Of a stretch of DNA of 64,000 nt, positions 2,740 through 59,651 are shown piece by piece; position 1 is the stretch's first letter; the number at the start of each line of letters is the position of its first letter. Below the pieces are notes generated by a model. The model ran no database searches, was not told where the DNA came from, and saw only the letters and a program-made list of their open reading frames with translations. The position numbers and the translations under genes are program-made. This stretch comes from a virus, in the IMG/VR virus record IMGVR_UViG_3300011115_000874, positions 96,799 through 160,798 of that record; one strand, 5' to 3'.

Positions 2740-2994
2740 TTATTTACCAATTCTAGGTTTAATATCAGATGGGAGAGGTCCTGTACTTTTAATACTAAAC
2801 TTAGAAAGAAATTTGTTTTTAAGAGTTGATTTTTGTTCTGGGGTTAATTTATTTTTCTTTGAAAAATAATCTATAACAGATTCAGTTGCATCTTCATCAC
2901 CTATGTATTCTTCAAAATCCTTAATAAACTTATTTTCAGATAATACTTTAGTAATTTCTTCTTTAATAATATGTTTTAACTCAGATACTTTCAT
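2740..2994 (-). CDS. putative capsid-internal protein, leader class MKxSxLKxIIKEE
   Basis: N-terminus MKVSELKHIIKEEI matches the ORFs at 16797 and 17316; function inferred. Confidence 0.55.
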   Translation of the reverse strand: MKVSELKHIIKEEITKVLSENKFIKDFEEYIGDEDATESVIDYFSKKNKLTPEQKSTLKNKFLSKFSIKSTGPLPSDIKPRIGK

Positions 2995-2996
2995 AA

Positions 2997-3509
2997 TTAA
3001 TATTTTTTACCTAATTCTAATATTTTAGACAAACCAATTAAAGCAGCACCAACACCAGCAGTAAGACCAAGACCAGAAAGAAATGCTACATTACCAGGCA
3101 TATCATTAAATATTGCTTTCATTAAAAACATATTCATAAAAGGAACAAGGTTTGAAGCATATAAAACTTTTCCTAAAGTACCAGAAACTTTAGCTATTTT
3201 ATCTTTTGGACTTAAAGCTTCATCAATCTCAGCTACAACACTTTGAATTTTAGGTTCAATCTTATCAACTGCAGTTTCAATAGATGTGCTAGATGTTATA
3301 CCTAAATCAGCTAATGCTGATTGAAGATTAACTTTTTCTTCATCTGAAAGTTTATCAACCATTGCTTCTATTGATGGATCTGATTCTACTTTATCTTCAA
3401 TTTTTTCAGCAGCGGCTATTGCTTTAGCATCTTCTTCAGTTAATTCTTTATATTGGCTTTCAGTGATCAAACCAGCTATTTTTTGCATTTTATAAAATTC
3501 TCTATTCAT
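2997..3509 (-). CDS. putative capsid-internal protein, leader class FxKMQKxAGLITE, hydrophobic C-terminus
   Basis: Leader shared with 58809..59651 and with the scaffold C-terminus; two hydrophobic segments at the C-terminus. Confidence 0.55.
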   Translation of the reverse strand: MNREFYKMQKIAGLITESQYKELTEEDAKAIAAAEKIEDKVESDPSIEAMVDKLSDEEKVNLQSALADLGITSSTSIETAVDKIEPKIQSVVAEIDEALSPKDKIAKVSGTLGKVLYASNLVPFMNMFLMKAIFNDMPGNVAFLSGLGLTAGVGAALIGLSKILELGKKY

Positions 3510-3531
3510 AGTATTAGTTTAATTATACATA

Positions 3532-3789
3532 TTAATAGTCTCCGTACATGTTAAATTTCTTTGGTGGAATTGGTTTTATTTCTGCTACAGTTGTTGAAAT
3601 AGCATACAATTCACCTTTTATAGGTGATAATCTAAAATCACATGGGTGTTGAGTTTCTTGAAAGTAACCTTCTAATGCCTCAGTTAATGAAGGATATACT
3701 GTATTAGGGTCGCTTAGCAGCGCCCAACTGTCTCCAGGTGGGCGTCGCTTAGCGATTAATACTAATTCTTCTTTGACTTCAGTAGCCAT
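3532..3789 (-). CDS. hypothetical protein
   Basis: 85 aa ORF whose start overlaps the groEL stop. Confidence 0.6.
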   Translation of the reverse strand: MATEVKEELVLIAKRRPPGDSWALLSDPNTVYPSLTEALEGYFQETQHPCDFRLSPIKGELYAISTTVAEIKPIPPKKFNMYGDY

Positions 3790-5405
3790 TAGAACATACC
3801 TCCCATTCCGCCCATCATATCATCCTGTTTTTTATCTTCAGGTTTATCTACGACAGTACATTCTGTTAATAGAATTGTTCCAGCTACTGATGCTGCGTTC
3901 TCGATTGCGGTACGAGTAACTTTAGTTGGATCAATAATACCTGCGTCTTTCATGTTAACGAATTTTTCAGTTAATAAATTATATCCTTTCCAGTTATCAC
4001 TACCACCTAATTTATTAATCAAATAATAAGCCTCTTGTTCTGTAGAACCAGCGTTAGTAAGAATTTTCATAAATGGTGCACCACATGCTGTGTAAACAAT
4101 TTGGCCACCTACTGATTTACGATTCTTGATTGCTTCACGAGCGTATAATAAAGCAGCGCCACCTCCAGGTACAATACCTTCTTCAATTGCGGCTTTAGTT
4201 GCTTGAAGCGCATCATCAACTCGGTCTTTCTTTTCTTTGACCTCAGTTTCAGTATTTCCACCTACGTGAACAATAGCTACTCCTCCGACAAATTTCGCGA
4301 GTCTTTCTTGTAGTTTTTCTTGTTCGAAAGGTGTTTTTGCTTTTTCGATTTGGAGCTGTAACTCTTCAATACGTGCTTGTATTCGTTCAGATTCTCCTCT
4401 TCCGTCAACGATTGTTGTTTCATCTTTTGTAATTGTAACTAATCGGGCTTCACCAAACCATTTTGAATCAAAACGATCTAATTTCATACCCTTATCAGTA
4501 CTAAATACCTCACCTCCTGTTAAAATTGCAATATCATCTAAAATAAGTTTTCTACGGTCACCAAAGTCAGGAGCTTTAACTGCTGCTACTTTAATAGTAC
4601 CTCTCATTTTATTAACGATAAGTGTTGCTAATGCTTCACCATCAATGTCTTCTGCAATGATAAGTAATGATTTACCTTGTGATGAAACGCTTTCTAACAA
4701 TGGTAACAATTCTTTGATTGAAGTAAATTTCTTATCAGCAATCAAAATCATAGCATTCTCAAGTGTACAACTCATTGTATTGTTATCTGTAACAAAGTAA
4801 TGAGATTTGTAACCACGATCAAACTGCATACCTTCTACTGTTTCAAGATATGTTTCACCTGATTTAGATTCTTCAATGTAAACAACTCCTTCACGACCTA
4901 CTTTATTCATTGCTGTAGCAATCAATTCTCCTACTTCAGGATCGTTATTACCTGAGATAGTAGCTACTTGTTTTAGTTGATCTTCAGAGCTAATGTCTTG
5001 TGAGATACTCTTGCGTAATTCTCCAATTACATCTTTAACTGCGGCATCAATATCACGCTTGATAGATACTGCATTTATTCCGTTGTTTAAGTGCACTAAA
5101 CCGGCTTTAACCATTTCTTGAGCCAACAATGTAGATGTAGTAGTACCATCACCTGCACCTTCAGCTGTCTTAATAGCTGCTTGTTTTACAAGTTGTACAC
5201 CCAATTCTTCAATTGGATCTTCAAGTGAAATGTTTTTAGCTACTGTTACACCATCTTTTGTTGATTGTGGGTAACCATTTTGATTTGCTATAACCACATT
5301 ACGACCATTTGGACCTAATGTAGACGTAACTGCGTTTGCTAGCTTGTCAATACCAGTTACGAGTTTTTTCCTTGCTTCAGGACCGAATTCGATAATTTTA
5401 CTCAT
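3789..5405 (-). CDS. groEL: chaperonin GroEL
   Basis: TLGPNGRNV, KDGVTVAK, GDGTTT, GMQFDRGY, APDFGDRRK, GIVPGGG, GGM tail. Confidence 0.99.
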   Translation of the reverse strand: MSKIIEFGPEARKKLVTGIDKLANAVTSTLGPNGRNVVIANQNGYPQSTKDGVTVAKNISLEDPIEELGVQLVKQAAIKTAEGAGDGTTTSTLLAQEMVKAGLVHLNNGINAVSIKRDIDAAVKDVIGELRKSISQDISSEDQLKQVATISGNNDPEVGELIATAMNKVGREGVVYIEESKSGETYLETVEGMQFDRGYKSHYFVTDNNTMSCTLENAMILIADKKFTSIKELLPLLESVSSQGKSLLIIAEDIDGEALATLIVNKMRGTIKVAAVKAPDFGDRRKLILDDIAILTGGEVFSTDKGMKLDRFDSKWFGEARLVTITKDETTIVDGRGESERIQARIEELQLQIEKAKTPFEQEKLQERLAKFVGGVAIVHVGGNTETEVKEKKDRVDDALQATKAAIEEGIVPGGGAALLYAREAIKNRKSVGGQIVYTACGAPFMKILTNAGSTEQEAYYLINKLGGSDNWKGYNLLTEKFVNMKDAGIIDPTKVTRTAIENAASVAGTILLTECTVVDKPEDKKQDDMMGGMGGMF

Positions 5406-5406
5406 A

Positions 5407-5718
5407 TTATTGTTCTGTTGTTTTTATAATTGCTAAAACTTGATTTTCAGGACATACCCAATACTCTTGACCTTCCAATTCAATTTTGTTAGGACCCATA
5501 CTTGGTAACATTACTTCCATTCCTACTTCTAATACTGTAGGAATAAATGCTCCTGAGTAAGATGATTGACCTGGGCCTACAGATACGATAGTACCAATAA
5601 GTGCTTTTTCTTTACCCATGTCGGGTACAATGATGGAACCATACATTCCTTCTTCTTCTTCACGGGGTTTAACTATAACCGCGTTAAACGTTGCTTGTAA
5701 CTGTTTCATATTATTCAC
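5407..5718 (-). CDS. groES: co-chaperonin GroES
   Basis: GSIIVPD, GTIVSVGPG, VLAII; directly upstream of groEL. Confidence 0.93.
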   Translation of the reverse strand: MNNMKQLQATFNAVIVKPREEEEGMYGSIIVPDMGKEKALIGTIVSVGPGQSSYSGAFIPTVLEVGMEVMLPSMGPNKIELEGQEYWVCPENQVLAIIKTTEQ

Positions 5719-6031
5719 TAAAATTAACTATTTGATTGATTTCTTCTTTTACTCGTTTCCATTCAGTAATATACTCATGAATAGTATTATACTCTTGACG
5801 TTTTTCTACTTTTAGTTTAGCGATTGAATTTAATGCTGAACCAAAATTAGTATGGAATGAAATAGATTTGACTGCTTCTTTAGTCCGCGTTTTGCGACCT
5901 CTTCCTTTTGTGTTTGTACCTGGGTAGACAGTTTCGTAGATTGTGTAACTGTTTGCATCACGACCGATGAAATACGGTTCGATAGACGGGTCTTTGATCA
6001 GTGTAACTGACGATAAATCGTTTTTTTCCAT
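5711..6031 (-). CDS. hypothetical protein
   Basis: ORF with likely start ATG 6031 (AAAAGTTATG), downstream of a promoter. Confidence 0.65.
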   Translation of the reverse strand: MEKNDLSSVTLIKDPSIEPYFIGRDANSYTIYETVYPGTNTKGRGRKTRTKEAVKSISFHTNFGSALNSIAKLKVEKRQEYNTIHEYITEWKRVKEEINQIVNFSE

Positions 6032-6046
6032 AACTTTTATTTTATT

Positions 6047-6078
6047 GTAATATAACATTTTTTGCTTGGGTAGCCAAG
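6047..6078 (-). promoter_or_regulatory. -33/-7 type promoter upstream of the groES/groEL operon
   Basis: CTTGGC...TATATTAC, 20-nt spacer. Confidence 0.7.
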
Positions 6079-6099
6079 CTTTATTATAAATATGTCAAC

Positions 6100-6825
6100 T
6101 TATTGTTCTTTTGCAACAATATAGTAAGTACTTTGTAACTCTTTGTTAGAGAATGTGAGTTTCATTAAACCATTTTGATTTATATATAAAGTACCAGATT
6201 CAGAACCTTTATTAGCAACTAATATTTCCTTCAACAAATCAGAACCATATACTAAATTAAATATTGAAGGTACATTAATAGTTGGATTTTGGATGGAATA
6301 AGTAACTTTATTAGCATATTCAACATCGCCTCCGAAAGTAAACTCTAAACCGTTTAAACCCAACCTAACAACAACGTTATCGCTATTTGTTAATGCGTTT
6401 TTAGATTTAACTAACGCTGTTATTGCTTCATCATCAATTGCTACTTGAACCTCATGGTCTTCAGAACCATTATATTTACCTGTTTTAGGAATGGTTAATA
6501 AGTCAGCTAAAGCATAATTTAGATTAAACTGGTTGTCTGCTATTAATAGTTTAGTTATTACTTTACCTTCTTTAGCATAACCAAGATCCAAATCACCTCC
6601 TGTGATAGATAATAGTTTATCTAGTTGAGTAGTGTTATTAATTCCTATCTCAGATTCAGGTAATGGAAAACCATTATAAGTTACTGTTCCTAACATTTCA
6701 CGAGTAGGAGCAGTAAAATTAATAGTTAGCTTTTTATTAGCGTCTATTTCCCATTTAACATTTTCTATTTGACCATTTAAATGGTACTTTTCAATAATTG
6801 CTTGTAGCTGTAGTTTCGATATCAT
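6100..6825 (-). CDS. DNA sliding clamp (gp45/PCNA-like)
   Basis: About 240 aa, C-terminal GLMKLTF...YYIVAKE, lies between PolB and the clamp loader; start moved to ATG 6825. Confidence 0.8.
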   Translation of the reverse strand: MISKLQLQAIIEKYHLNGQIENVKWEIDANKKLTINFTAPTREMLGTVTYNGFPLPESEIGINNTTQLDKLLSITGGDLDLGYAKEGKVITKLLIADNQFNLNYALADLLTIPKTGKYNGSEDHEVQVAIDDEAITALVKSKNALTNSDNVVVRLGLNGLEFTFGGDVEYANKVTYSIQNPTINVPSIFNLVYGSDLLKEILVANKGSESGTLYINQNGLMKLTFSNKELQSTYYIVAKEQ

Positions 6826-6830
6826 ATAAC

Positions 6831-6862
6831 CTAATATAATAAAAAATGACCCAAAGGCCAAA
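6831..6862 (-). promoter_or_regulatory. -33/-7 type promoter with embedded hairpin, upstream of the clamp
   Basis: TTTGGCCTTTGGGTCATTTTTTATTATATTAG. Confidence 0.78.
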
Positions 6863-6868
6863 CTAAGT

Positions 6869-7375
6869 TTAGATTACGTCTTTTACTGTGTCTGCAAATT
6901 CTTTAAAGTCCTCATCATCTGCTAGCATAAATTTATATTTGTCTGCTTCTTGTTTTGAGTATATAAAATTATTACCTTCTTCATCACGATATGAACTATA
7001 CAAATCATCAACATCCTCTTCTTTAAAACATTCTGTTCCTTCAGGAACATATAATTCTATACCATTTATTAAGCTTTGTAATCTTCTTCCAAAGAACATT
7101 CTATCAGCGTCTGTTTTAGAATCAGTATTAAAACCTATATCTTGCATTTTGTTAGTGAATTTGTCTCCTCCACTTTTAGTTGTTCTTTCAAAATCTTGCA
7201 TTTGTTGATATTCTCCCCACAATGCTATCATCACTTGTGGTTCAGTAAGTGTTCCACTATCTAATCCTATATCTCGAGTCCCACTACTACCTTCAGTATA
7301 ATATATATTAAAAGGTAAAACAAGCATTTCAAGGTTAGCTAATGCTTCTTTTAATAAGTTTGTTAATTTAATCAT
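6869..7375 (-). CDS. putative capsid-internal protein (leader MIKLTNLLKEA), acidic
   Basis: Own late motif at 7380-7387, LLKE leader, followed by the hairpin/promoter element. Confidence 0.5.
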   Translation of the reverse strand: MIKLTNLLKEALANLEMLVLPFNIYYTEGSSGTRDIGLDSGTLTEPQVMIALWGEYQQMQDFERTTKSGGDKFTNKMQDIGFNTDSKTDADRMFFGRRLQSLINGIELYVPEGTECFKEEDVDDLYSSYRDEEGNNFIYSKQEADKYKFMLADDEDFKEFADTVKDVI

Positions 7376-7379
7376 GAAT

Positions 7380-7387
7380 ATAAATAT
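7380..7387 (-). promoter_or_regulatory. putative late promoter motif ATATTTAT
   Basis: Same motif as upstream of the structural genes. Confidence 0.6.
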
Positions 7388-7389
7388 GA

Positions 7390-9972
7390 TTAAAAAGCGA
7401 AAAATTTAGCTACGTTAGCATTTAATGGTGGGAACTCCCACTTTAAATCTTTATAAAGTTCCTTTAATTTGTTTAGTAGTAATGATTCAAAAATTTCATC
7501 TACATCAATATATGTCTTAACAAATTTTTCAATCTCATCAGGTACCTTAGCATTTGGTAATCCAATTGTATCTAACTTATAAGGATTAGCTTTTAAGTTA
7601 ATTATGAATATCTTATCACCTTCTACTACTGATTCGTATTGTTTATCTAAACGTTTGAATTTTAATAAGTCATTGTAACGAACAGCTGCTTTAGTATTAC
7701 TAGGTGCTTTCAATCTGAATGTGCTAAACATTTCACCTGCTCTAGGAGCGTTCCTATATGATGCTATTTGTTTTACACCTGTTGGTTTGCCTAATTCTCG
7801 AGGATCTAATGTCTTAACTAATTTATAGAAATCAATAATGGTTTGATCTATTTCTGTTTTAGACTTACCAAACAAAATATCTTTAATTAGTTGTTCACCA
7901 AAGCCTTTAAATCGTTTATTCATGTTAGACTTCATCAACTCAAGTCCTTTCATGTCTAGCTCTTCAACAGCAACACCTTCCTTATTAGTAATATACATTG
8001 CATATCTTCTCTTACCTGTAACTAAGATACCTTTAGCAATTACCTCTTGTTTTAATTGGAAATAATGTTTTTTAGGATTAATATTAAATACTTTCTTACA
8101 TAACTCATTTAAATAGTAGTTAGACTCATCTTGAATTTCAGTAGCCATTTTTAATATTAATTCATCTTTTTGTTCAGGTGTTGAATTAGGATACCTATGT
8201 TTTAGTAAGTCACCTAACTCAATATACATGGAGTCAGTATCACTAATACAAATAAACTGTTTATCAGTATTTAACTCAGTATTAAGTTTATTATTAGCAA
8301 ACACAATTGATTCCTGTGTAAGTCTTTGTCCGCTGTTAGTAATAGCAGCACTACAAATTAAATGTCCGTCTGTATATCTCCATCCATTCTTAGCAAATGT
8401 GCCATACATAGCGTTTTGCAAGATCTTAAATGCATGTTGGAACAAATCATATAGTTTATAATTAGCCCAATCTTCAGATTTACCTGCTGTTTTCTTTAAA
8501 CCTCTATAATGTTCTCGTTTTTCAAACCAACCTTCTAAAATCTTAGCAACTACACTTTGTTCATCAGTCCTAAACATAGCACCTGAAGCTGATAATGTGA
8601 ATTCATTATCTTCAATTATCTTAATCAGCTTGCCAATTGATATTTGAGCTGCTTGTAATGTGTAATTTTTTTTATTTAGTTTTTCAATTGTTATTACTTC
8701 ACTAGGATCTCGTTCCTTAAGTTTTTCTAAACTATGATTTTGTTCATAGGTTGGATTTAAAGTAACAATTCTACCTACTAATGTTTCAATTCCTAAATTA
8801 AGTGACTTAATGATTGAGGGATATAGTGAAGTAAAGTCTAAGTCAATTACATCAAAGTATAGACCTGGTATTGGTTCTAATAAGTAACCACCTGCATATG
8901 TTGAGTTAGTTGCCTTACGAGATGGGTTATGAGTTGTTGGTTTATTAGGTGAAATAATACCTTCACGTCGTAAGTGCTTTAATATAGCACCTTCATTCAT
9001 TACAGTGTTATAATAAATTGACTCATAAGGTATATTACAAATATGAGAAATCATAACTGTCAATTCAATAAACTTTAATTTGTCTTCTAGTTTTTCTAGA
9101 ATCTCAACGTCTCGTAAGTTATAGTCAATAAAAGTATTTAAATCATTTTTAAACAATGTATTCAAATTACCTTCATATTCAATCTTACCTAACCCAACAT
9201 ATTTGGTTCCAATGTCACCTAATTTATATGATGGTTCTTCTTTCATAATGTACTTCTTATGAAGTAACATATAATCTAGATGATTCACACCTCCAATTTT
9301 AACTTGGTTTTCACCATTAAAATCACGTGCCTCAACTCTACCTATTGGTGATAACCGGCTTACCTCGTCTGTACCTACAACTTGCGACATTCGGTAGTAT
9401 AAGTACGGTAAGTCGAAGTAAGCCGAGTTATAGCCGACTAATATGGTGGGATCTAACTCTTCATACTTAGATAAAAACTTACCTATTAATTCTCGTTCTG
9501 AGCCACAAGGTATAATAATTTTATCGTCCTGGTTCGTTTCAGGTATTTGTTTTGACTTATCAACAATAAAACATATCTTTTGTTTAGTAGTCACATCTAT
9601 CAGAGCAATAGATGTTAAGGGCATAGGAGCAGACCTAATATATTCAGGTGTTAGTGCTCCACCCATTTCAATCTCGATATCTATATAGACTATATTATGC
9701 CAAGATGGAACTACATCATCAAATTTATAATATAGTTCTCGTAACACATATAATGACTTGTCGATATCTTTTTCTAGTAGGTCAGGATCGTTTTTATCTA
9801 ATTTCTTAGTAGGTATAGCCCATCCTCCAGTTAGTACTGGTTTAGCCCCTTCTTGTTGTTCATTTACTCTTTTCCAGTAAGTAGGCTGGAATTGGAAATC
9901 CATCCAGCCTTGCTTATCGTCTCGTAAATGGTAAGTATAAGTTTGAAAGTCATAATAAATACTTTGATACAT
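7390..9972 (-). CDS. family B DNA polymerase
   Basis: ExoI DIE, ExoII GYNSAYFD, ExoIII YNLRD; motifs DFTSLYPS, KILQNAMYG, DTDS, KRRY. Confidence 0.98.
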   Translation of the reverse strand: MYQSIYYDFQTYTYHLRDDKQGWMDFQFQPTYWKRVNEQQEGAKPVLTGGWAIPTKKLDKNDPDLLEKDIDKSLYVLRELYYKFDDVVPSWHNIVYIDIEIEMGGALTPEYIRSAPMPLTSIALIDVTTKQKICFIVDKSKQIPETNQDDKIIIPCGSERELIGKFLSKYEELDPTILVGYNSAYFDLPYLYYRMSQVVGTDEVSRLSPIGRVEARDFNGENQVKIGGVNHLDYMLLHKKYIMKEEPSYKLGDIGTKYVGLGKIEYEGNLNTLFKNDLNTFIDYNLRDVEILEKLEDKLKFIELTVMISHICNIPYESIYYNTVMNEGAILKHLRREGIISPNKPTTHNPSRKATNSTYAGGYLLEPIPGLYFDVIDLDFTSLYPSIIKSLNLGIETLVGRIVTLNPTYEQNHSLEKLKERDPSEVITIEKLNKKNYTLQAAQISIGKLIKIIEDNEFTLSASGAMFRTDEQSVVAKILEGWFEKREHYRGLKKTAGKSEDWANYKLYDLFQHAFKILQNAMYGTFAKNGWRYTDGHLICSAAITNSGQRLTQESIVFANNKLNTELNTDKQFICISDTDSMYIELGDLLKHRYPNSTPEQKDELILKMATEIQDESNYYLNELCKKVFNINPKKHYFQLKQEVIAKGILVTGKRRYAMYITNKEGVAVEELDMKGLELMKSNMNKRFKGFGEQLIKDILFGKSKTEIDQTIIDFYKLVKTLDPRELGKPTGVKQIASYRNAPRAGEMFSTFRLKAPSNTKAAVRYNDLLKFKRLDKQYESVVEGDKIFIINLKANPYKLDTIGLPNAKVPDEIEKFVKTYIDVDEIFESLLLNKLKELYKDLKWEFPPLNANVAKFFAF

Positions 9973-9990
9973 AACCTTTATTTAAAAATT

Positions 9991-10329
9991 TTAAGTTATT
10001 ACTAACGTGAATACTCCTGTTCCTTTTAATCTATAATTTGTCCCAGTAATAGCTACTGATGGGGTGAATGTAATAACTGTGGTTCCAGGTTGTATAACAG
10101 CTGAAGCAACATACGGGGTTTGTATAAATCCTGATAATGCGGGGGCAGACCATGATCCATTAGCACAAGCTTGAGGAATATTAATAAATGTTCCATTATT
10201 ATCTGGTATTGTTTCTAAAGTGAAATATGATGAACCACCAGTATTAGTAAAAGTAAATGTTTTTAATCCTAATAAGTTCTCTCCAACTGTTCCTATTCCG
10301 TATAATTGTGCTGATGTATAAGATGCCAT
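9991..10329 (-). CDS. small beta-rich Thr/Gly protein, possibly virion-associated
   Basis: Composition resembles the structural proteins; late motif at 10345-10352. Confidence 0.5.
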   Translation of the reverse strand: MASYTSAQLYGIGTVGENLLGLKTFTFTNTGGSSYFTLETIPDNNGTFINIPQACANGSWSAPALSGFIQTPYVASAVIQPGTTVITFTPSVAITGTNYRLKGTGVFTLVIT

Positions 10330-10354
10330 TATTTATTGTTTATCATAAATATGG

Positions 10355-10849
10355 TCACTTGTCTAGAAACTGTTTAAGATTAGGTCTAAAATAGTTTATT
10401 GATTTCATTACCTTACGATCTCGAGAGCGATATACTACATAGTAATCACCTTGTTTTTCATAATGGCAACGTTCACCTTGTTCTTGTTCTCTAAGACGAA
10501 CAGTGAAATTAGCTTCCTCTTCTGTCTTACAAGCTTTACTCATGTTTGAAGCTTGAACCTCAGCATACGCGGGTAAGATTTTATCTTTTAGACCATGAAG
10601 CATAGCTCCATTACCTAATGAAACATAAGTAATATCACAAAGTGCATCTAACACTTCTACAACATTTCCTGTTTCACAAGCGTGTTTATATTCCTCTAAT
10701 TCCTCTAGAATAAAATCATAAACAAACATCCATTCTTTTTTATCTGGGATAGTAGGTTCATAGTTATTTGGTTTACCCATTGTAGCGTTAAATTCCTCTA
10801 CCTCGCTAACAAATGGAACATAATTTTCTTTAGATTGAGACATGGCCAT
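10355..10849 (-). CDS. MazG-like / PRA-PH family NTP pyrophosphohydrolase
   Basis: ILEELEEY...EVLDALCDITYV, EVQASNMSK. Confidence 0.88.
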   Translation of the reverse strand: MAMSQSKENYVPFVSEVEEFNATMGKPNNYEPTIPDKKEWMFVYDFILEELEEYKHACETGNVVEVLDALCDITYVSLGNGAMLHGLKDKILPAYAEVQASNMSKACKTEEEANFTVRLREQEQGERCHYEKQGDYYVVYRSRDRKVMKSINYFRPNLKQFLDK

Positions 10850-11525
10850 TATTTATTTTAAGTGAATCAAAAAATTCTTTACGTGCTAAATTATCGTTTT
10901 CCATAAACACACCTGATGCTTTAGTAGTAACCATTGCAGCACCTTGATGTTTAATACCTCTACAACTAACACAATTGTGAGTTGCAACTACAGTAACAAT
11001 AACACCATGATTACCTTCACAAACTTTATTTACTGCTTGATGAATTGCTGCTGTTAATTGTTCTTGGATAGCACCTCTACGACCAAAGTGTTCTACAATA
11101 CGATTTAATTTAGATAAACCAATTACTCGACCTTCAGCACCTGCAATGTAACCAATATGTACTACACCTCTAATTGTTTGGTGATGGTGTGAACACATTG
11201 AAGTTAATTGAATATTACGTTCAATAATTACCCCATCATAACCATCCGATGGGAATGAAGTAATATCAGTAAATCCATTATAGCGACCAGCCCATAGATC
11301 ATTAACATATGCTTTAGCTACACGACGAGGTGTATCAGCAGAGTTAGGATCGTTTTTCCAATCACATTTTAATGCTGTTAAGAAGTTACCAAAATGTTCA
11401 GTTGCTTCTTCAATCATTTGTTGCTTTTCTTCATCCGTTAATGGGCGATCTAAAGCTGATCCATTTGCTAGACCTGTATTCACACACTCAATGTCGTTGT
11501 GAAATTTTCTTCTATTATTTTCCAT
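10830..11525 (-). CDS. folE: GTP cyclohydrolase I
   Basis: DTPRRVAK, SMCSHH, GLSKLNR, IQEQLT, HNCVSCRG. Confidence 0.97.
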   Translation of the reverse strand: MENNRRKFHNDIECVNTGLANGSALDRPLTDEEKQQMIEEATEHFGNFLTALKCDWKNDPNSADTPRRVAKAYVNDLWAGRYNGFTDITSFPSDGYDGVIIERNIQLTSMCSHHHQTIRGVVHIGYIAGAEGRVIGLSKLNRIVEHFGRRGAIQEQLTAAIHQAVNKVCEGNHGVIVTVVATHNCVSCRGIKHQGAAMVTTKASGVFMENDNLARKEFFDSLKINNGHVSI

Positions 11526-11530
11526 ATAAC

Positions 11531-11562
11531 CTAATATATTAATTTATTTCTAGACTGCCAAA
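11531..11562 (-). promoter_or_regulatory. -33/-7 type promoter upstream of folE
   Basis: TTTGGC...TATATTAG, 20-nt spacer. Confidence 0.72.
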
Positions 11563-12059
11563 ATATATGGCAAACTCCTTTTCTTACCTAAATCATCATC
11601 CATTCCAAACCCAACTACCCATTCATCCTCAAGAACAAAACCGTAAAGTGAACCTGTAGGCATATCTACTTCATTAATATAACGTTTAATTAAAGTGACC
11701 ATTTGAACACTTGCTGGGTCAAATTGGTAGAAATGATTTGCTAATGCATTCATTGTTATTCCTGAGTCGTAAATGTCATCTATAAGATAAACATGCTTAC
11801 CAGTTACATCTACTGATTTGTCTAGTATCATATTTAGGTCACCTCGTTCTTTACCTTCATATGATCTTACTTTTACAAAATCACATTCTGGATCTAGTGA
11901 GGATAATTTTTCAACTAGTTTAGAATAAAAAACAAACCCACCATTTAGTACACATACTAAAACAATAGGAATTTTTTCTGATTTATGGCGATTTAAAATT
12001 TGTGTAGCGATAGAATCAATTCTTGATTCAATAATTCTATTTTCAAATAATACTTTCAT
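11550..12059 (-). CDS. hpt: hypoxanthine/guanine phosphoribosyltransferase
   Basis: VLNGG, RSY loop, PRPP motif LIDDIYDSGIT, VVGFGMD, RSLPYI. Confidence 0.92.
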   Translation of the reverse strand: MKVLFENRIIESRIDSIATQILNRHKSEKIPIVLVCVLNGGFVFYSKLVEKLSSLDPECDFVKVRSYEGKERGDLNMILDKSVDVTGKHVYLIDDIYDSGITMNALANHFYQFDPASVQMVTLIKRYINEVDMPTGSLYGFVLEDEWVVGFGMDDDLGKKRSLPYILAV

Positions 12060-12318
12060 GTAATTCTTTTATTGAGTGTAATCCTGGGTAATGTTTAATT
12101 TTTCCTTTATTAGATAATATTACGTGTGGGTAATAATCTACTGAAAATGCTGTTTCTAAATCTGTGTCTTCATTAATAAAAATCATTTCGAATCCAAGTT
12201 TATCAGCAATTTCCTGGATCATAGGGCGAGCTACTTTACATCCTCCACACCATTCAGCATAGAAGAATGTGACAGTATTTTTTGTTTTAAGCGCCTCAGT
12301 TAATAATTTTTTATCCAT
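12043..12318 (-). CDS. thioredoxin-like protein
   Basis: FYAEWCGGCK, cis-Pro motif YYP. Confidence 0.88.
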   Translation of the reverse strand: MDKKLLTEALKTKNTVTFFYAEWCGGCKVARPMIQEIADKLGFEMIFINEDTDLETAFSVDYYPHVILSNKGKIKHYPGLHSIKELHESII

Positions 12319-13100
12319 TATACTTCTCGTTTAGTGTCAAATGCAATAATATGTTCTCTACCTGTAAAATTATAACCATTGTCTCTACAGAAATCCATCA
12401 CCATAGGATATACTCGAATTAATTCATCTCTTGTATCACCAGGAGGCATTAACCAAGTTTTACGTTTTGGAATATCCATCTCAACTCTAAATGCTTCAAT
12501 CTCAGTCCATGCTTCAGGCATTTCGATAGGATTGCAAACTGGTTTAAAATGATAGTCATAATGGTATTCTAATGTTTTTCTTATCGTTTCTTTATCCAAA
12601 CGGTGTTTATTATGTTGGTCCACCATTTTTTGGTCTGCGACTTTACCTTGCGGTGTAAGAGTCCCAATTGCAGGAACACTGTTACTGAACTTAGGACTAA
12701 GAGATATAAGGCCAATAGGGAAGTCAGTTTCAACGAAATGACTACCTTCTGTTTCAATTGTAATAAATAAGCCACGTTTTTCTGCTAAATGAGTTAATTC
12801 GTTTACTAGATCAGGATGCATTGTAGGTGAACCACCTGTTAACATCATTTCTCTAATATGAGGGTTATTGTCATAAATAGCTATAATATCATTAAATGTA
12901 TATTTTCCTTTCTCAGGATGAATACTTGTATACCAACTATCACACCACCCACCATCACCAAACCAACATCTATGAGTACATCCTGTAGTTCTAATAACTA
13001 CTGTAGGCATCCCAGCTCTACTACCTTCTGATTGTACAGCTGTATACAGCTCTACAATAGGTAATTTTTTATTATAGTCTTCTATTCTTCCTGGTTTCAT
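12318..13100 (-). CDS. queE: 7-carboxy-7-deazaguanine synthase (radical SAM)
   Basis: QSEG, RTTGC, LTGGSP, IETEG, LSPK; CX3CX7C cluster motif; cluster context. Confidence 0.92.
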   Translation of the reverse strand: MKPGRIEDYNKKLPIVELYTAVQSEGSRAGMPTVVIRTTGCTHRCWFGDGGWCDSWYTSIHPEKGKYTFNDIIAIYDNNPHIREMMLTGGSPTMHPDLVNELTHLAEKRGLFITIETEGSHFVETDFPIGLISLSPKFSNSVPAIGTLTPQGKVADQKMVDQHNKHRLDKETIRKTLEYHYDYHFKPVCNPIEMPEAWTEIEAFRVEMDIPKRKTWLMPPGDTRDELIRVYPMVMDFCRDNGYNFTGREHIIAFDTKREV

Positions 13101-13579
13101 ATTTCTTCGTAAATTGAGCTGTTATTATCATTTTCAAAACACTCTACTTTAATACATTTACAACGACCAGCATCTGTTTTAGCTAATACTTCATTAAAGT
13201 GTTCATACACTAAACGAGCATTACTTTCAGCACCCATCTTTTCTAAGAAATGTACTTTACATAGTCCTTCCATTTGCATTTGCTCAAACAAATCACGATA
13301 TGGATCATCTGCTTGAATTAATGTTGTATGATCCCACATATGGTCCATCCAATCCTTTAAGCCATTACCTTTAGGTGGTGTTTTAAATCCACCATAATCA
13401 ACAATCCAATTCATATCATCTAATTGTTCATCAATATTAGGTTCATTAGATGCAAACCATACTTTAAATTTTAAAGCATAACCATGTAATAGCTGGCAGT
13501 GTGAATGTGCTGCTTTATATTGTCTGATTGCTACTGAGTAGTTTTCAAATAATTTAGTTGATATATATCTTGTTGCCAT
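13097..13579 (-). CDS. queD: 6-carboxytetrahydropterin synthase
   Basis: HCQLLHGY, WIVDYG, DHTTL, AES, FEN. Confidence 0.92.
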   Translation of the reverse strand: MATRYISTKLFENYSVAIRQYKAAHSHCQLLHGYALKFKVWFASNEPNIDEQLDDMNWIVDYGGFKTPPKGNGLKDWMDHMWDHTTLIQADDPYRDLFEQMQMEGLCKVHFLEKMGAESNARLVYEHFNEVLAKTDAGRCKCIKVECFENDNNSSIYEEI

Positions 13580-13580
13580 A

Positions 13581-13835
13581 TTATTCTCCGTTTAACCAAT
13601 TAACAATTTGTGAGTGTGATTTTACTCCTGTAAAACGTCTTAATTCTTGTCCGTTTTCAGCTAGTACTACTGTAGGTACATTTCGTATATTAGCAACCTC
13701 TAGTATTGCTGGGTCAACATAATCAATATTTTGTTTATGGACTGGGATCTGTCTTGCAATTTCATCCATAATTGGGCCCAATGTCTGACATGGAGTGCAC
13801 CAATTTGCTGTGTAGTAGTATAATTCTTTAGGCAT
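13581..13835 (-). CDS. thioredoxin-like protein
   Basis: ANWCTPCQ, RNVPT, RFTG. Confidence 0.9.
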   Translation of the reverse strand: MPKELYYYTANWCTPCQTLGPIMDEIARQIPVHKQNIDYVDPAILEVANIRNVPTVVLAENGQELRRFTGVKSHSQIVNWLNGE

Positions 13836-13992
13836 TGTCTTCAGTTTCTGGATTTTGTCGTTGTAATTGTTCTTTTAGCATAGCCATAAATTTACGTTCC
13901 ATGACTAATTTATTTTTAGCAACAGTTTCATTACGCTTTGCAATACGTTTGTTGTGGGCTTTCTTACCACCTCGTTTTTTAGATGTTGGCAT
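13828..13992 (-). CDS. 54 aa basic hypothetical protein
   Basis: Not in the ORF track: MPTSKKRGGKKAHNKRIAKRNE...EDNA*, fills the gap and overlaps both neighbours. Confidence 0.7.
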   Translation of the reverse strand: MPTSKKRGGKKAHNKRIAKRNETVAKNKLVMERKFMAMLKEQLQRQNPETEDNA

Positions 13993-14791: not shown

Positions 14792-14792
14792 T

Positions 14793-15056: not shown

Positions 15057-15061
15057 AACTT

Positions 15062-15868: not shown

Positions 15869-15878
15869 AACTTATTAT

Positions 15879-15910
15879 TTAATATAAATATATCTTATTA
15901 TATAGCCAAA
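15879..15910 (-). promoter_or_regulatory. -33/-7 type promoter upstream of the DpdA-like/que operon
   Basis: TTTGGC...TATATTAA, 20-nt spacer; overlaps an ATATTTAT motif. Confidence 0.72.
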
Positions 15911-15919: not shown

Positions 15920-16441
15920 TTAATAAGGTAGATCATTTTCTGGTGTATTCTTTAGAAATGTTTTGTACTGGTTGATCAACTCTTCAGTAGTACCTTCAGC
16001 ATGTTCATAAATGAATGTATGTACTTGTTCTTTAGTACCACCAATCCAATGTCTTAGACTGTATTTTAGACTCTCCATTCGTTCTCGTTCATCACGTTCA
16101 AAATCTTTTCTTAGATTCTCAATACGTCTATTATACATTTTAATAGCATTACGTTCGTGTTCTTGTTTTACTTCAAAACCTTTATCACTGTTACGTATTT
16201 CTGCTATTTCTTCAGCCATCCACCAATACTCATAATTGATATACTTGGCATATGGTGAGTATTCAAAGTCACCATTTTTCATTTTTTCATCAATACGAGC
16301 TTTAGCTCCTAATGGCTTATGAATTGGGTAACGTCTATGCCAATAAAATACATTAAACTTAGCTAGTTTAGCTGGTTTAGGTGGTGCTTCAATGCCAAAT
16401 ATAGGATTGAATTCTTTTAAAACTTGTTCTACTGTAACCAT
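15920..16441 (-). CDS. hypothetical protein
   Basis: 173 aa ORF, no recognised motif. Confidence 0.6.
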   Translation of the reverse strand: MVTVEQVLKEFNPIFGIEAPPKPAKLAKFNVFYWHRRYPIHKPLGAKARIDEKMKNGDFEYSPYAKYINYEYWWMAEEIAEIRNSDKGFEVKQEHERNAIKMYNRRIENLRKDFERDERERMESLKYSLRHWIGGTKEQVHTFIYEHAEGTTEELINQYKTFLKNTPENDLPY

Positions 16442-16796: not shown

Positions 16797-17312
16797 TTAA
16801 AGATTTAATCTATTAAATTTCTTTGCTTTGTCAGCTATACTTTGAAGCATTTTAGTTTCACGAGTATCTTCTCCACCTTCCCATTGGTCTGATAGTTTTA
16901 CTATTTTATCCATCATTTGTTTATTGGGAACTTCATAAAATGTATAATAATCGTTTATATCATCTTTAAATATATCTTTAAACTTTTGTGTGAAATCATT
17001 TTTATCTGAGGCTTCTATCCCATGGAAATTACCTAACTCATCAGATTGGCCTTTAAAATTAACAATTATAAAGTATTTGTTTTTACCTTCTGTTTCATTT
17101 ATTGGATTTTCGTCTTTTGGATTTTCATCTTCAGGATATATTATATCCATAACAGCTTGTACATCAATATTAACTCCTAGTTGTTGTATTGCTTTAAGAG
17201 TATCCATAATGCCGTTTTGGTAAGCAGATGGAGTTTGTTCTTTACCTGGGTAATCAAATCCAAGTTCATTTAACTCTTCTTTGATGATTTGTTTTAGTTG
17301 TGATAGTTTCAT
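16797..17312 (-). CDS. putative capsid-internal protein, leader MKLSQLKQIIKEELNE
   Basis: Shared leader; body unrelated to its neighbour. Confidence 0.55.
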   Translation of the reverse strand: MKLSQLKQIIKEELNELGFDYPGKEQTPSAYQNGIMDTLKAIQQLGVNIDVQAVMDIIYPEDENPKDENPINETEGKNKYFIIVNFKGQSDELGNFHGIEASDKNDFTQKFKDIFKDDINDYYTFYEVPNKQMMDKIVKLSDQWEGGEDTRETKMLQSIADKAKKFNRLNL

Positions 17313-17672
17313 AATTTATATTTCTTCAACGTGTGATATGTTAAAAAATGTTTTACCTTCATTAGTAATAAAGTTAACTCGAAATGGCTTATCCATTGGA
17401 GCCCTTCTCTCATCAGCTGCTTCAATTACTACTTGATCTACAACACCACTACCTTGTTTAAGTCTAGCATCTCCTTTCCATGTAGAAAATTCTAAATTTT
17501 TACCTTTATACTCATTAGTATATTGTTTAGAAAGTTTAGCGTAAACACTAGGCATTATTCTTTCTACATCTACAGATATGTTGTATGTTACATCATTCCA
17601 TTGAGCGTTACTTTCTTCAACAGTTTTGTTAAACTCTTCTTTAATGAGTTGTTTTAGTTGTGATAGTTTCAT
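17272..17672 (-). repeat. 41-nt direct repeat encoding the shared leader (17272-17312 and 17632-17672)
   Basis: aactcttcttt(g/a)atga(t/g)ttgttttagttgtgatagtttcat, 2 mismatches, 360 nt apart. Confidence 0.95.
17316..17672 (-). CDS. putative capsid-internal protein, leader MKLSQLKQLIKEEFN
   Basis: Shared leader; late motif at 17690-17697. Confidence 0.55.
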   Translation of the reverse strand: MKLSQLKQLIKEEFNKTVEESNAQWNDVTYNISVDVERIMPSVYAKLSKQYTNEYKGKNLEFSTWKGDARLKQGSGVVDQVVIEAADERRAPMDKPFRVNFITNEGKTFFNISHVEEI

Positions 17673-55759: not shown

Positions 55760-55787
55760 GACTTATTATTTGAGTATAAATATCAAC

Positions 55788-55840: not shown

Positions 55841-57514
55841 TTAAAGGGTGTTTAAACCATTTACATAGATCTTACCATAGAATTCAGGACGTAACATCTT
55901 CTTAGCGAAACGAGTCAACAATCCTTTACGTGGAGTGAAGGTGTTTGGATCGTAGATAAGAGGAGTCATGATCAACGGAATGTATGGAGCAAATACAGCA
56001 CCTGCTTCTAGGAACTGCTTACCACGGAAACCTAATAAGATAGTGTTTTCTGTCATGTAAGGGTTCTTATAAACAGTGTAACGGCTGTTAAATTGACCAG
56101 CTTTTTGTACACCGAATGCATATTCCATATCTTCAGCACCGTTGCTATTTGCAGCGAATCCTGGGATTGATTCCAAGATAGTTGAAATAGTTGGAGATAC
56201 TACCATGAAATTTGCACCACCACGAAGGGTTAATTGGTGAATACGGTTACTGATCTTGTTAACTTTAGTACCTAAAGTTTGGAACCAAGCACCTTGAGTG
56301 TTGTAGAAACCTAATGACTGTGTGTAATCAGTTCCAGCAGCGTTCAATGTGTTGTTATTAATAGCTGACCAGTATTCAGTATTACCTGCTGGGGCATCTT
56401 CAATCAACATATCAAGAATTTCAAGATCAATCTCTAAAGAGATGTACTCGCTCATGATGTTAGTTAATTCAGCTTCAGCATCTAAGTTTTGGTAAGCGTT
56501 CAAATCTTGAGCAAATTCTGGCGTCCATGCTGCTTTTAACTTTTTAGTCTTAGCAGTAATTGCTTGAGATTGCATAGAAATGTTAATTTCTGGGATAGAT
56601 GAACTAATACTAGTACCTAATGAGTTAGGGTTAGCGAAAGTTGAGTTATCTTCGAAATCACCACGATACTGATCAGTAGTAGCTTTGTTATAGAATACAG
56701 TATACACTTGAGTAGCAGCTACAGCTGTAGAAGCAGTAACGAAGAATGTGTAAGTAGTAGTAGCTGGGTTGTAGTTGTGGAATGCAGATATGTTACTTGC
56801 AGCTCCTAAAGCAGACCCACTAATAATAAATCCACGTGCAGCATCAGCATCAGCGTTTGGTAATCTAGAAGAAGAAATAGTAAATTTCTTTAAACGTACT
56901 CCATCTTGTGCGGATGCAGATAAAGAAGAATCAAATCCTACTTCAGCCCAAGAAGCTGAGGTGATCGAAAAATCAGCAACTGAAGTACCTATAGTGAAAG
57001 TACTTGGACCAGATGATGTTTGGTTAGTAGTGTAAGTAAAACGACCAGCACCATATAAACCACCTTCAGCAGCTGGGGTAGCGAATGGAGTTGTGCTAGA
57101 AGGGTTACGAGTACCATACAAAGATTGACCACTAGTAAATGGATTCTTAGTAGTACCATATTGGAAATCTAAGAAGAATACAAGACCAGAAGGTAAGTTC
57201 ATTGGTTGAACACTAACGAATTCTTTCGCTGAGATCTGACCAAATACTTTACGTACTAATGGTAATGCAATTCCAGCCCAGTTCTCACCAGAAGTACCTG
57301 ATGTGAAGAAAGATGCGTTACCTGTAGCAGTAGCTTCTACTACTAATTGCTTTGCTTGATTTTCCAACATCAAAGCCATGTTGTTTTTGTTTACGTCTTC
57401 GCCTAAACCTTCCAAAAGGCCGGTTTTGTTCCATTTGTTTGCTAATCTAGCAGCGTCACCTTGAAGTGACTTCCATGGATTTGCGGACTCGACTAATGAT
57501 TGAATTGTGTTCAT
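55841..57514 (-). CDS. major capsid protein (gp23-like)
   Basis: LPLVRKVF, VQPMNLPSGLVF, AKTKKLKA.WTPE.AQDL, APYIPL, DPNTFTPRKG..TRF. Confidence 0.97.
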   Translation of the reverse strand: MNTIQSLVESANPWKSLQGDAARLANKWNKTGLLEGLGEDVNKNNMALMLENQAKQLVVEATATGNASFFTSGTSGENWAGIALPLVRKVFGQISAKEFVSVQPMNLPSGLVFFLDFQYGTTKNPFTSGQSLYGTRNPSSTTPFATPAAEGGLYGAGRFTYTTNQTSSGPSTFTIGTSVADFSITSASWAEVGFDSSLSASAQDGVRLKKFTISSSRLPNADADAARGFIISGSALGAASNISAFHNYNPATTTYTFFVTASTAVAATQVYTVFYNKATTDQYRGDFEDNSTFANPNSLGTSISSSIPEINISMQSQAITAKTKKLKAAWTPEFAQDLNAYQNLDAEAELTNIMSEYISLEIDLEILDMLIEDAPAGNTEYWSAINNNTLNAAGTDYTQSLGFYNTQGAWFQTLGTKVNKISNRIHQLTLRGGANFMVVSPTISTILESIPGFAANSNGAEDMEYAFGVQKAGQFNSRYTVYKNPYMTENTILLGFRGKQFLEAGAVFAPYIPLIMTPLIYDPNTFTPRKGLLTRFAKKMLRPEFYGKIYVNGLNTL

Positions 57515-57545: not shown

Positions 57546-58607
57546 TTATTTTCTTAAACCAGCTAATCTTTGCATACGAGCAAATGCATCGTTTACTTCG
57601 ATAATTGGTTGTTTTGTTTGAGAAGGAGCGATACTTTTTGAAGCTGATCCTAGTGATTCTTTAATTGGTGCTTTCTTAGCTACTGCTTTGAAAGATTCAG
57701 CTAATGTTTCGAATACTAATTTAACTTCTTTTACAGTTTCAGCTCTGTCAAACGTGTTTAAAACCTTTACTTTTTCTGATTCGGTAAGATTCTTAGCTTT
57801 GAAGATTTTGTTCGTGTAAAGCAACTTAGCGTTTAATAGATTAACTTCATTAAGTTCGTTTCTTAACTCACTGATAGTTTCTTCCATTTCAGTAGTGTCA
57901 GCCATTTCATCCATTGGTTTCTCTGCTTTTCTTTCTTTAAAGAATTTCCATATTGCTTTAGCGGCAGCAGTTGTGATTCCAGCAGCAGCTAATATCATAG
58001 CAGCTTTTCCAGCATCTGGGGATTCCATTGCTCTAGTTATCATGTTAGATATTCCTTCAACAGATTCTCCTACTTGTTCTTCTTTTTCTTCACCCATAAG
58101 TTCGTTTAAAAGTTCATCTAATTCAACTTCTTCTTCATCTCCAACTTCAACTTCTTCTCCGTCTAAGTCTTCAACATCTTCTAAGTCTTCTTCAGATTCT
58201 TCTTCTTCACCTTCTCCAGGCATAAGCTTACCAGTTTCGATCATGTCATCAATAACTTTCATTACTAATTCTTCAATTTCTTCATCTGACATTTCTTCAA
58301 GCATTAGATCTTCATCTATCTTGTCTGTGTCATCTTCAGAAACCATATCATCAGCTTCGTCAGTCATTTCTAACTCTGCAAGAATTTCATCTAGATTAAA
58401 AGACTCTTCTAATCCTTTATCTTCCTTGTCAGTTGTTTCATACATACCCTCTTGTTCCATTTCATCTTCCTCGTTTAGTCTTTCAGCAAACATAGCTGTA
58501 AGTTGTGGAGTGAACGCTTCTTCAAGAGCAGCTTTTGCATTCGCGATAGCAGTTTCCTTAATGGTCTTAGCCTCAGCGATTGCTTCTTTGAGCATTTCTC
58601 TGTTCAT
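57546..58607 (-). CDS. prohead scaffold / core protein (gp22-like)
   Basis: Very acidic, coiled-coil, directly upstream of the capsid gene, many (L/I)-x-E sites. Confidence 0.85.
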   Translation of the reverse strand: MNREMLKEAIAEAKTIKETAIANAKAALEEAFTPQLTAMFAERLNEEDEMEQEGMYETTDKEDKGLEESFNLDEILAELEMTDEADDMVSEDDTDKIDEDLMLEEMSDEEIEELVMKVIDDMIETGKLMPGEGEEEESEEDLEDVEDLDGEEVEVGDEEEVELDELLNELMGEEKEEQVGESVEGISNMITRAMESPDAGKAAMILAAAGITTAAAKAIWKFFKERKAEKPMDEMADTTEMEETISELRNELNEVNLLNAKLLYTNKIFKAKNLTESEKVKVLNTFDRAETVKEVKLVFETLAESFKAVAKKAPIKESLGSASKSIAPSQTKQPIIEVNDAFARMQRLAGLRK

Positions 58608-58749
58608 TTTTTGTCCTCAATTAAATTGTTTTGGAAATACGTTTATTAAGAAACGTAATAGATTTTTTATTAATAGATGCTACATATAGATTCAGGGGTA
58701 GCATATTTGAGCATACATATATATGGATTTATGTAAAGTCGCCTTTTAT

Positions 58750-58780
58750 AAAAAAGAAATGCCTCTCTTTCGAGAGGCAT
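58750..58780 (-). terminator. intrinsic terminator after the protease operon
   Basis: ATGCCTCTC-GAAA-GAGAGGCAT followed by TTCTTTTTT. Confidence 0.9.
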
Positions 58781-58808
58781 CAGTCCTAAAATACTATTTT
58801 AGGAGGAG

Positions 58809-59651
58809 TTATACTAATATAAGTTTAAACTCATCACCTTGAGATTCTATTTTATATTCATTTCCACCAATATTATATGTTTCTCCTGGTTTGAAATCTT
58901 GTCCATCCATTGAACCTTGCCCTAATGCTTCTAAATCATCTGTTATATCACTATCATCATAGTTAATAATTTGATTCATTTCAGCTCCATTATGAAAATA
59001 TTGCATACCTTCATTTAATGACTCATTAGTTCCACCAGGGAGAATTACAGCAAATTTTCCACCCCATTCTGATGCTCTTGGAATATCTGGGTTACCTGGG
59101 AATGCTGTTAATAATGAGTAACATTTTCCTTCTTCAATTTTTTTAGTTATGTCAGCGTCTGTTTTAACATCGTCTGGTAGGAATTGAGGATTTGATTTTC
59201 TAATAATTAATGATATTCTATTAGAAGCAAAACTAGATAATGGTTGTGATGTTGTGATAGAAGGAACTTTTACTTTATTAGGACCTTCTTGTTTTTCAAC
59301 TTCACCTTCTTTAGCATCTTTTAATGCTTTAGCTTTATCTATAGGTAAAACTAAATCATATCCTATACCTGGTTTGTTTAATTCATACGCTCCACCATCA
59401 CCTGATACTTTAGGGGCTACTTCTTTAACCATATTAACTATTTCATCTTCAGTAACACCAGTTTTAAATACTGAGCCCATACCTGGTTTGTTATGTTCCA
59501 TAATATGTTTTTTAGCATAATCTGATACTAAAATAACAATACTATCTTTTCCAGGTATTTGATCAGTTGCTTCAGTTAATAGTGCTCTTTTATATTCGCT
59601 TTCTGTTATTAAACCAGCTAGCTTTTGCATTTTAAGGAATTGTAGATTCAT
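58809..59651 (-). CDS. putative capsid-internal protein with possible BECR/EndoU-like nuclease domain
   Basis: Leader FLKMQKLAGLITE; central KHIMEH...SVF...LLTAFP pattern. Confidence 0.5.
   Translation of the reverse strand: MNLQFLKMQKLAGLITESEYKRALLTEATDQIPGKDSIVILVSDYAKKHIMEHNKPGMGSVFKTGVTEDEIVNMVKEVAPKVSGDGGAYELNKPGIGYDLVLPIDKAKALKDAKEGEVEKQEGPNKVKVPSITTSQPLSSFASNRISLIIRKSNPQFLPDDVKTDADITKKIEEGKCYSLLTAFPGNPDIPRASEWGGKFAVILPGGTNESLNEGMQYFHNGAEMNQIINYDDSDITDDLEALGQGSMDGQDFKPGETYNIGGNEYKIESQGDEFKLILV

Follow-up and report, generated by a model that had tools for sequence, protein, structure and literature searches.

Why should genes with unrelated products open with the same short leader peptides, and why should one of these leaders reappear at the very end of a phage scaffold? 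The question is raised by a 64,000-nucleotide stretch of viral DNA (positions 96,799 to 160,798 of IMG/VR record IMGVR_UViG_3300011115_000874; hereafter, the window), in which a sequence-only reading had noticed six such open reading frames (ORFs), dispersed among other genes, and had taken their leaders for address tags that load cargo into the prohead. The window is the final 64 kb of one 160,798-bp contig, with a guanine-cytosine content of ~31% and 100% of its genes on the minus strand. It belongs to an uncultured T4-like phage that is kin of Flavobacterium phage immuto. We analyzed the window, its relatives and the 230 predicted proteins of the whole genome. The sequences suggest that the leaders are probably capsid (prohead-core) targeting propeptides of the type known in T4 as the capsid targeting sequence (CTS), trimmed by a gp21-type protease.

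The six ORFs and their N-terminal leaders translate as claimed. They are listed here with their class and together with a seventh candidate from the window (the late motif ATATTTATA is discussed below):

2740..2994, minus strand: class B tagged gene, 84 aa, MKVSELKHIIKEE, tag at 2956-2994
2997..3509, minus strand: class A tagged gene, 170 aa, MNREFYKMQKIAGLITE, tag at 3459-3509; its protein has a hydrophobic C-terminal segment and homologues in 21 related loci
6869..7375, minus strand: class C tagged gene, 168 aa, MIKLTNLLKE, tag at 7346-7375; late motif ATATTTATA at 7379-7387
15920..16441, minus strand: extra candidate, MVTVEQVLKE, hydrophobic at residues 4, 7 and 8 with Glu 10; a weak single-gene match
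16797..17312, minus strand: class B tagged gene, 171 aa, MKLSQLKQIIKEE, tag at 17274-17312
17316..17672, minus strand: class B tagged gene, 118 aa, MKLSQLKQLIKEE, tag at 17634-17672; late motif at 17689-17697
58809..59651, minus strand: class A tagged cargo gene, 280 aa, MNLQFLKMQKLAGLITE, tag at residues 1-17 (59601-59651); a second L-T-E site lies at residue 27, and the gene fills a variable slot between protease and scaffold

Classes A and B had been proposed before and stand as proposed, except that MIKLTNLLKE, once counted as a looser class B leader, belongs to a separate class C (M-I-K-L-x-x-L-L-x-E, as in MIKLTDLLKE), with 7 genome copies, all directly after Met. The description of the genes as dispersed holds in part: those at 2740 and 2997, and those at 16797 and 17316, are adjacent pairs, and within 60 nt of 16797-17312, which lies immediately downstream of 17316-17672, there is no separate late motif. 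The set also proved larger than six. The class A motif reads F-L-K-M-Q-K-L-A-G-L (an example leader is MNKEFLKMQKLAGLITES), and its core, [MLIF]Q[KRQ][LIV]AG[LIV], occurs 5 times genome-wide, each time in a real gene and near one of its ends. Three copies are N-terminal (2997-3509 and 58809-59651 in the window, and a 932-aa protein at genome 9992-12790) and two are C-terminal (the scaffold and a 171-aa protein at genome 12817-13332). This 171-aa protein, in L121, ends in class A and is followed at once by the 932-aa protein that starts with it. Against a within-protein shuffle of the 230 proteins, we observed 5 copies of class A where 0.01 were expected, 3 of class B where none (0) was, and 7 of class C where 0.12 were. 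When looser members are counted (MNTKLKSLIQQIIKEE, MKIDGLKKLIKE, MKLTEILKQLLEE, MEINRLRSIIRE and others), about 20 of the 230 predicted genes are tagged.

What the leaders have in common is their ending. The earlier observation that they finish in (I/L)-x-E extends to a longer pattern present in every class, hydrophobic-x-x-hydrophobic-hydrophobic-x-Glu, which reads L-T-D-L-L-K-E in class C, L-K-Q-I-I-K-E in class B and L-A-G-L-I-T-E in class A. The CTS of the T4 internal protein IPIII is MKTYQEFIAE. Class C has L4, L/I7, L/I8 and E10 in 32 of 36 copies, and classes B and A show the same pattern with the Glu moved to E12 and E17. In the T4 CTS, residues 4 and 7 serve targeting and residues 8 and 10 serve processing (PMC9026906). 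The T4 record shows the same pattern in two known gp21 substrates (slashes mark the sites), gp24 (MAKINELLRE/S) and gp23 (FGSFLTE/A). Within this genome, the pattern has a frequency of 0.25% at internal positions, and with the Glu at residues 7-20 it was seen 32 times against ~8 expected, the counts being highest for E10 and E12. In a set of 1,860 proteins from the genome and its relatives, placement was N-terminal for 32 of 32 class C and 7 of 7 class B matches.

A protease suited to such endings is predicted in the same genome, in a head-gene module with the following members:

59655..60263, minus strand: gp21-type prohead protease (Pfam Peptidase_S77, 8.6e-29)
57546..58607, minus strand: acidic gp22-like scaffold of 353 aa, between gp21 and gp23, with a T4 gp22-like N-terminus
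55841..57514, minus strand: gp23 major capsid protein (Pfam Gp23, 8e-72)

Candidate T4-like sites to match this gp21-family protease are conserved both in the capsid protein and in the protease. The predicted gp23 propeptide comprises residues 1-60 (57335-57514) and ends at a conserved AKQLVVE/A, the counterpart of the T4 gp23 site given above; the form AKQLVxE/[ATSN] is kept near residue 60 in 10 of the 10 relatives compared. In the immuto capsid protein the predicted cut would follow QIVSE, again near residue 60. The gp21 homologue begins MKQVLIE/T, the counterpart of the 'LIE-9' site of T4 gp21 (PMC9026906). Further, the scaffold N-terminus EMLKEAIAEAK resembles MLKEQLIAEAQK of T4 gp22.

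The opposite end of the scaffold ties it to the leaders. Behind a conserved P-I-I-E site, the protein closes with 16 residues, VNDAFARMQRLAGLRK (57549-57596), that constitute the class A motif. The match between class A leaders and the scaffold C-terminus, first noticed in this window, is borne out across the lineage. In loci selected by gp21 similarity alone, 57 of 57 scaffolds end in ...[AV]-F-x-R-[MF]-[QRK]-x-[LI]-A-G-[LI]-x-x, with P-I-[IV]-E ahead of it in almost every case. The same ending closes 13 further scaffolds from a first set of loci, found through the class A motif, and that of immuto (...SRWQKLAGIIK). The 119 IMG/VR loci that hold MQKLAGxITE are all relatives of this phage. N-terminal class A leaders match the scaffold tail upstream of the core too, as N-E-x-F-x-[KR]-M-Q-K-L-A-G, and an AlphaFold (AF2) model of the 58809-59651 protein predicts a helix at tag residues 3-11, followed by a non-helical A-G-L-I-T. 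Unlike the N-terminal tags, the scaffold stops right after this hook. Past the motif, [LIVMF]-x-E occurs within 7 residues in 151 of 154 copies among the top profile matches; among copies not used to find loci it follows directly in 9 of 16, and within six residues in more. Scaffold-tail and leader variants showed no co-variation, and scaffolds with 'LAFG' adjoin leaders with 'LAG'. Most copies are N-terminal; besides the scaffold, the C-terminal bearers are the 171-aa family (genome 12817-13332) and the 874- and 969-aa homologues P0122 and P0124, which have the motif at both ends and N-terminal regions that resemble that of the 932-aa protein.

A precedent for such a copy exists. The scaffold of phage 80alpha and the SaPI1 protein CpmB have a common 16-residue C-terminal helix-and-hook (hook RIIK) that binds the capsid protein, and they compete for one capsid-protein site (PMC5644958). 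The likeness lies in a second protein that copies the last ~16 residues of a scaffold, and in the form of the peptide, an amphipathic helix with a short basic/hydrophobic hook (here ...RMQRLAG-LRK or -IIK). In 80alpha the copy is a parasite's and alters capsid size, whereas here the copies are the phage's own, are mostly N-terminal with a protease motif after them, and stand on many unrelated proteins whose capsid binding is putative. The protease and scaffold of herpesviruses (UL26/UL26.5) share a C-terminal tail with which they bind the major capsid protein. There too, a protein other than the scaffold enters the procapsid by way of the same capsid-binding tail as the scaffold, and the maturation protease subsequently cuts that tail off; the two herpesvirus genes are, however, nested in one locus, with no portable tag on many genes.

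From these features we would picture the system as follows. The tag, a short amphipathic helix ending in hydrophobic-x-x-hydrophobic-hydrophobic-x-Glu, would dock its protein into the assembling prohead; the gp21-type protease would cut after the Glu and free the body inside the head; and the bodies would be delivered into the host. Class A, as a copy of the C-terminal 'helix plus hook' N-D-A-F-A-R-M-Q-R-L-A-G-L-R-K of the scaffold, would let its cargo use the scaffold's docking site, be that the inside of the gp23 shell or the core.

The tags move between proteins, as the sequence-only reading had supposed. By body, the 145 tagged proteins of the genome and its relatives form 87 clusters, and orthologous bodies carry different tag classes. 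For example, the class C protein of 6869-7375 and L016:593-1168 share 57% identity over the body, yet the latter opens with a class A leader. Homologues of the 58809-59651 body number 337, and at least 7 unrelated leader families are found on them (class A, MNHLSSFDKFLSESKINE, MRKKDKLKNIEQANL..., MDNFDLRKYLAENRLLKE, MKLNEQISRIKSMMGLLTE, class C and others), and [LIVMF]-x-E lies exactly 12 residues ahead of a conserved body anchor in 86 of 90 of these homologues. Some orthologous bodies have no leader at all. When 1.84 billion representatives were searched with a profile of the class A leader, 1,648 protein clusters matched (E<=0.001), and 142 of the best 150 do so at the N-terminus only. In a tblastn search of 50,697 cultured phage records with a class A leader, immuto was the sole match, and neither Pfam nor PHROGs assigned any of the leaders, or the majority of the bodies, to a family.

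Immuto bears the tags on several proteins: immuto26A_188 and _41 have class A, _40 has MIKLIDLLTE, _191 and _157 are of class B type, immuto26A_3, _194 and _195 carry MENFDLKKFLVEN, and a further candidate, _184, is a nucleotidase. An additional dialect, M-E-N-F-D-L-K-K-F-L-V-E-N-K-L, stands on 3 immuto genes (L126:1803-2318, L001:29545-29844 and L001:29844-30845), one of them annotated as a PduO adenosyltransferase. In L064, L069 and L108, orthologues of genome 16504-16944 carry it in place of class C.

Exchange is also seen at the slot between gp21 and the scaffold, which often holds tagged genes of either class. Of the slots in the 57 gp21-selected loci, ~35 are without any ORF (22 of them) or contain only ORFs of 30-51 aa, ~13 are occupied by a class-B-type tagged gene and ~10 by an untagged one. 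An apparent rule that a class A gene always follows gp21 (16 of 16 loci) came from ascertainment bias, the loci having been found via the motif, and was refuted by these 57 loci. The gap itself (window 58608-58808; L129-L207) is a hot spot for variable genes, class A tagged genes among them; the untagged ones include an 83-aa family and a 205-aa protein with a hydrophobic, signal-peptide-like start.

Several of the bodies look like effectors. A Zeta-toxin-type kinase (Pfam 3e-13; genome 25237-26034, L122:5237-6034, minus strand) has the class C tag MIKLTDLLKE, and in relatives the orthologues still bear class-C-like tags (MIKLLTLLRE, MIGLISLLKE and MIRLINLLLE). Other tagged bodies have weak matches to an acetyltransferase, an alpha/beta-hydrolase and a HAD-hydrolase. 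For the 58809-59651 body (residues 28-196), the best VIA-align hits were weak (Z 6.4 to 4) and comprised CdiA-CT toxins, RelE/ParE, BrnT and colicin D; H53 is invariant in 39 homologues. A Foldseek search of the PDB with the 280-aa protein gave no match at E<=0.001. An RNase-toxin-like fold of the Barnase/EndoU/colicin/RelE (BECR) type is a weakly supported candidate for this body.

The nature of the bodies bears on whether they are cargo for the host at all. The tagged proteins could instead be components of prohead assembly or of the core, degraded or retained in the head like T4 gp67, gp68 and gp22, with those of class A acting as accessory scaffolds. Such a role would suit the identity of class A with the scaffold tail, the small size and acidity of many tagged bodies, and the very small (56-58 aa) class A proteins that adjoin gp21 in relatives. 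It would also suit the 171-aa family, which looks scaffold-like (helical and acidic), combines a class-B-like N-terminus with the class A C-terminus and is fused in some relatives to the 304-aa family of the head module; the C-terminus of these fused relatives is not class A. We nevertheless regard this alternative as rather unlikely, because several bodies resemble enzymes or toxins (the Zeta-toxin-type kinase and, weakly, the acetyltransferase, hydrolase and RNase-toxin-like matches), and the spread of 145 proteins over 87 body clusters is a better fit to a repertoire of cargo than to a conserved machine.

Promoter motifs provide an indication of when the tagged genes may be expressed. Structural genes, among them those for sheath, tube and baseplate, have the sequence ATATTTATA(A) at 3-26 nt ahead of their ATG, and from this placement it is probably a late promoter. 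A second motif, GTTTGGC followed by a spacer and TT[AG]TATTTA, precedes small ORFans at genome 51-82 kb and probably marks early promoters. In the window, the late motif stands directly before 6869-7375 and 17316-17672. The head genes have their own copy:

62550..62558, minus strand: late-promoter motif ATATTTATA, ahead of the head genes

From it runs a series of genes for 284-, 162- and 304-aa proteins, gp21, the class A cargo, the scaffold and gp23; the next copy (55775-55783) is downstream of gp23. The expected association of tagged ORFs with late motifs appeared in the relatives, where the motif lies within 45 nt of 115 of 287 tagged genes (40%) and 128 of 1,034 others (12%), an odds ratio of 4.7 whose p-values are inflated, to the detriment of our proposal, by redundant loci clustered around class A genes. 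Nor was the enrichment significant in this genome alone (8/31 vs 33/199), which weighs on the same side. The leaders do not occur equally on early genes: in the relatives the early motif precedes 0 of 287 tagged genes and 33 of 1,034 others.

Could the tags bind a partner outside the capsid, such as a hub protein of phage or host, the phage GroEL/GroES or one another as an oligomerizing helix, their likeness to the T4 CTS being convergent? Packaging of the tagged proteins is only something we infer, short amphipathic helices are generic interaction modules, tagged genes are found also in the replication/metabolism region (window 2740-17672), and the phage GroEL/GroES genes adjoin two of them. 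This reading would leave unexplained the class A ending of the scaffold in every relative, the protease motif at a fixed junction in every class, and the preference for late and avoidance of early promoters, and we consider it improbable, about on a par with a role in assembly. Selection acts on the peptide, for synonymous codons vary freely (within MQKLAG, all six Leu and all four Ala codons are in use), which supports tags that are portable peptides and not DNA features. A DNA-level by-product (recombination junctions, or translation-start signals in a host without Shine-Dalgarno sites) would fit tags that sit at gene boundaries and genes that are shuffled among relatives, yet it is very improbable, being largely refuted by residues that stay fixed as their codons vary, and further opposed by class A copies that are C-terminal or internal and by upstream DNA conserved no further than the promoter motif.

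Several further points count against prohead targeting and delivery. The motif [LI]-x-E is short and is sought within Glu-rich proteins. The large terminase (genome 607-2178, L121) begins with the loosely class-B-like MSQDIKQIIREE; a terminase cannot be cargo, so some of the loose matches must be false positives. Most tagged bodies are acidic (median isoelectric point 5.2), unlike the basic internal proteins of T4; one tagged protein has a membrane-like hydrophobic segment and another is 932 residues long. For the tagged HAD-type hydrolase (a weak Pfam match; the annotation of immuto calls the orthologue a 5' nucleotidase), the expected place of action is the cytoplasm. The C-terminus of gp22 in the T4 record has no class A-like peptide. 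Finally, we found no virion proteomics for immuto, Mel-JY01 or RM378, including in papers that mention immuto.

Of the proposal that portable address tags load interchangeable effectors, the portability, the identity with the scaffold tail, the protease motif and the link to the late motif stand; binding, packaging, cleavage and host delivery are what we infer from them. The most economical account is a T4-like system that loads proteins into the prohead and then trims them, grown to many cargos and several tag dialects. Its kind is already known from the T4 CTS; what is new is that one tag copies the scaffold tail, that tags are swapped between bodies and that tagged genes go with a promoter motif. 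Mullaney and Black reportedly worked in 1996 on the CTS of the T4 internal proteins IPI-III and Alt. In these proteins, and in the gp21-cut propeptides of gp24 and gp23, N-terminal tags of 10-19 residues likewise precede unrelated bodies (PMC9026906, PMC3012670). The two systems are also alike in the hydrophobic residues 4, 7 and 8 and Glu 10 of class C, in encoding a gp21-family protease and in the portability of their tags. They differ in number (~20 tagged genes per genome here and ~4 in T4), in the at least 3 tag classes of this genome with more in relatives, in the presence of C-terminal tags, and in bodies that are mostly acidic with enzyme- or toxin-like domains, known here from sequence alone. 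Giant phages such as phiKZ, 201phi2-1 and SPN3US also cut many head proteins after Glu with a T4-type, gp21-like protease, which recognizes S/A-x-E, and eject cargo into the host (PMC9026906, PMC5694885). Their propeptides, in contrast, are long, with no shared short tag and no copy of a scaffold tail described.

Other features of the genome agree with its placement among the T4-like phages. Pfam searches of the window and genome also found a T4-type portal and large terminase. The portal gene is split by the contig ends (window 62570-64000 and genome 1-580), and therefore the contig looks circularly permuted and complete. The nearest cultured relative is Flavobacterium phage vB_FspM_immuto (vB_FspM_immuto_2-6A, host Flavobacterium sp. 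LMO8), whose capsid protein is 54% identical and whose head genes have the same order; the only other cultured phages with kinship in the capsid protein are Microcystis phage Mel-JY01 and Rhodothermus phage RM378. Directly downstream, in window numbering, of the class A/B pair at 2740-3509 are genes for GroEL (538 aa; 3789-5405, minus strand) and a GroES-like protein (5407-5718, minus strand), assigned by their N-terminal sequence and by synteny with immuto genes annotated as GroEL/GroES. Two GIY-YIG-like homing endonuclease genes (window 1046-1705; genome 7931-8539), recognized by an N-terminal motif alone, each lie behind a late motif.

Taken further, and with less confidence than we place in the targeting role itself, this large, uncultured lineage of T4-like Bacteroidota phages may possess a multi-dialect address code for capsid cargo that is legible in sequence, one dialect being a copy of the scaffold's docking tail. 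About 8% of the proteome would then be loaded into the head for injection, including the Zeta-toxin-type kinase and the proteins with weaker RNase-toxin, acetyltransferase and hydrolase matches; we advance this tentatively, as a possibility somewhat short of even. The copy of the scaffold tail suggests that cargo was recruited by borrowing the scaffold's docking peptide. If the tags work as proposed, a simple sequence rule would list which proteins travel in the heads of uncultured T4-like phages and are injected along with the DNA, and injected effectors would be predictable for at least 1,648 class A protein clusters. Such host-takeover and anti-defence factors are otherwise found only via virion proteomics of cultured phages. 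The tags would also provide a natural, portable means of loading foreign proteins into phage heads, and because the cultured phage immuto bears the same tags, the idea is directly testable.

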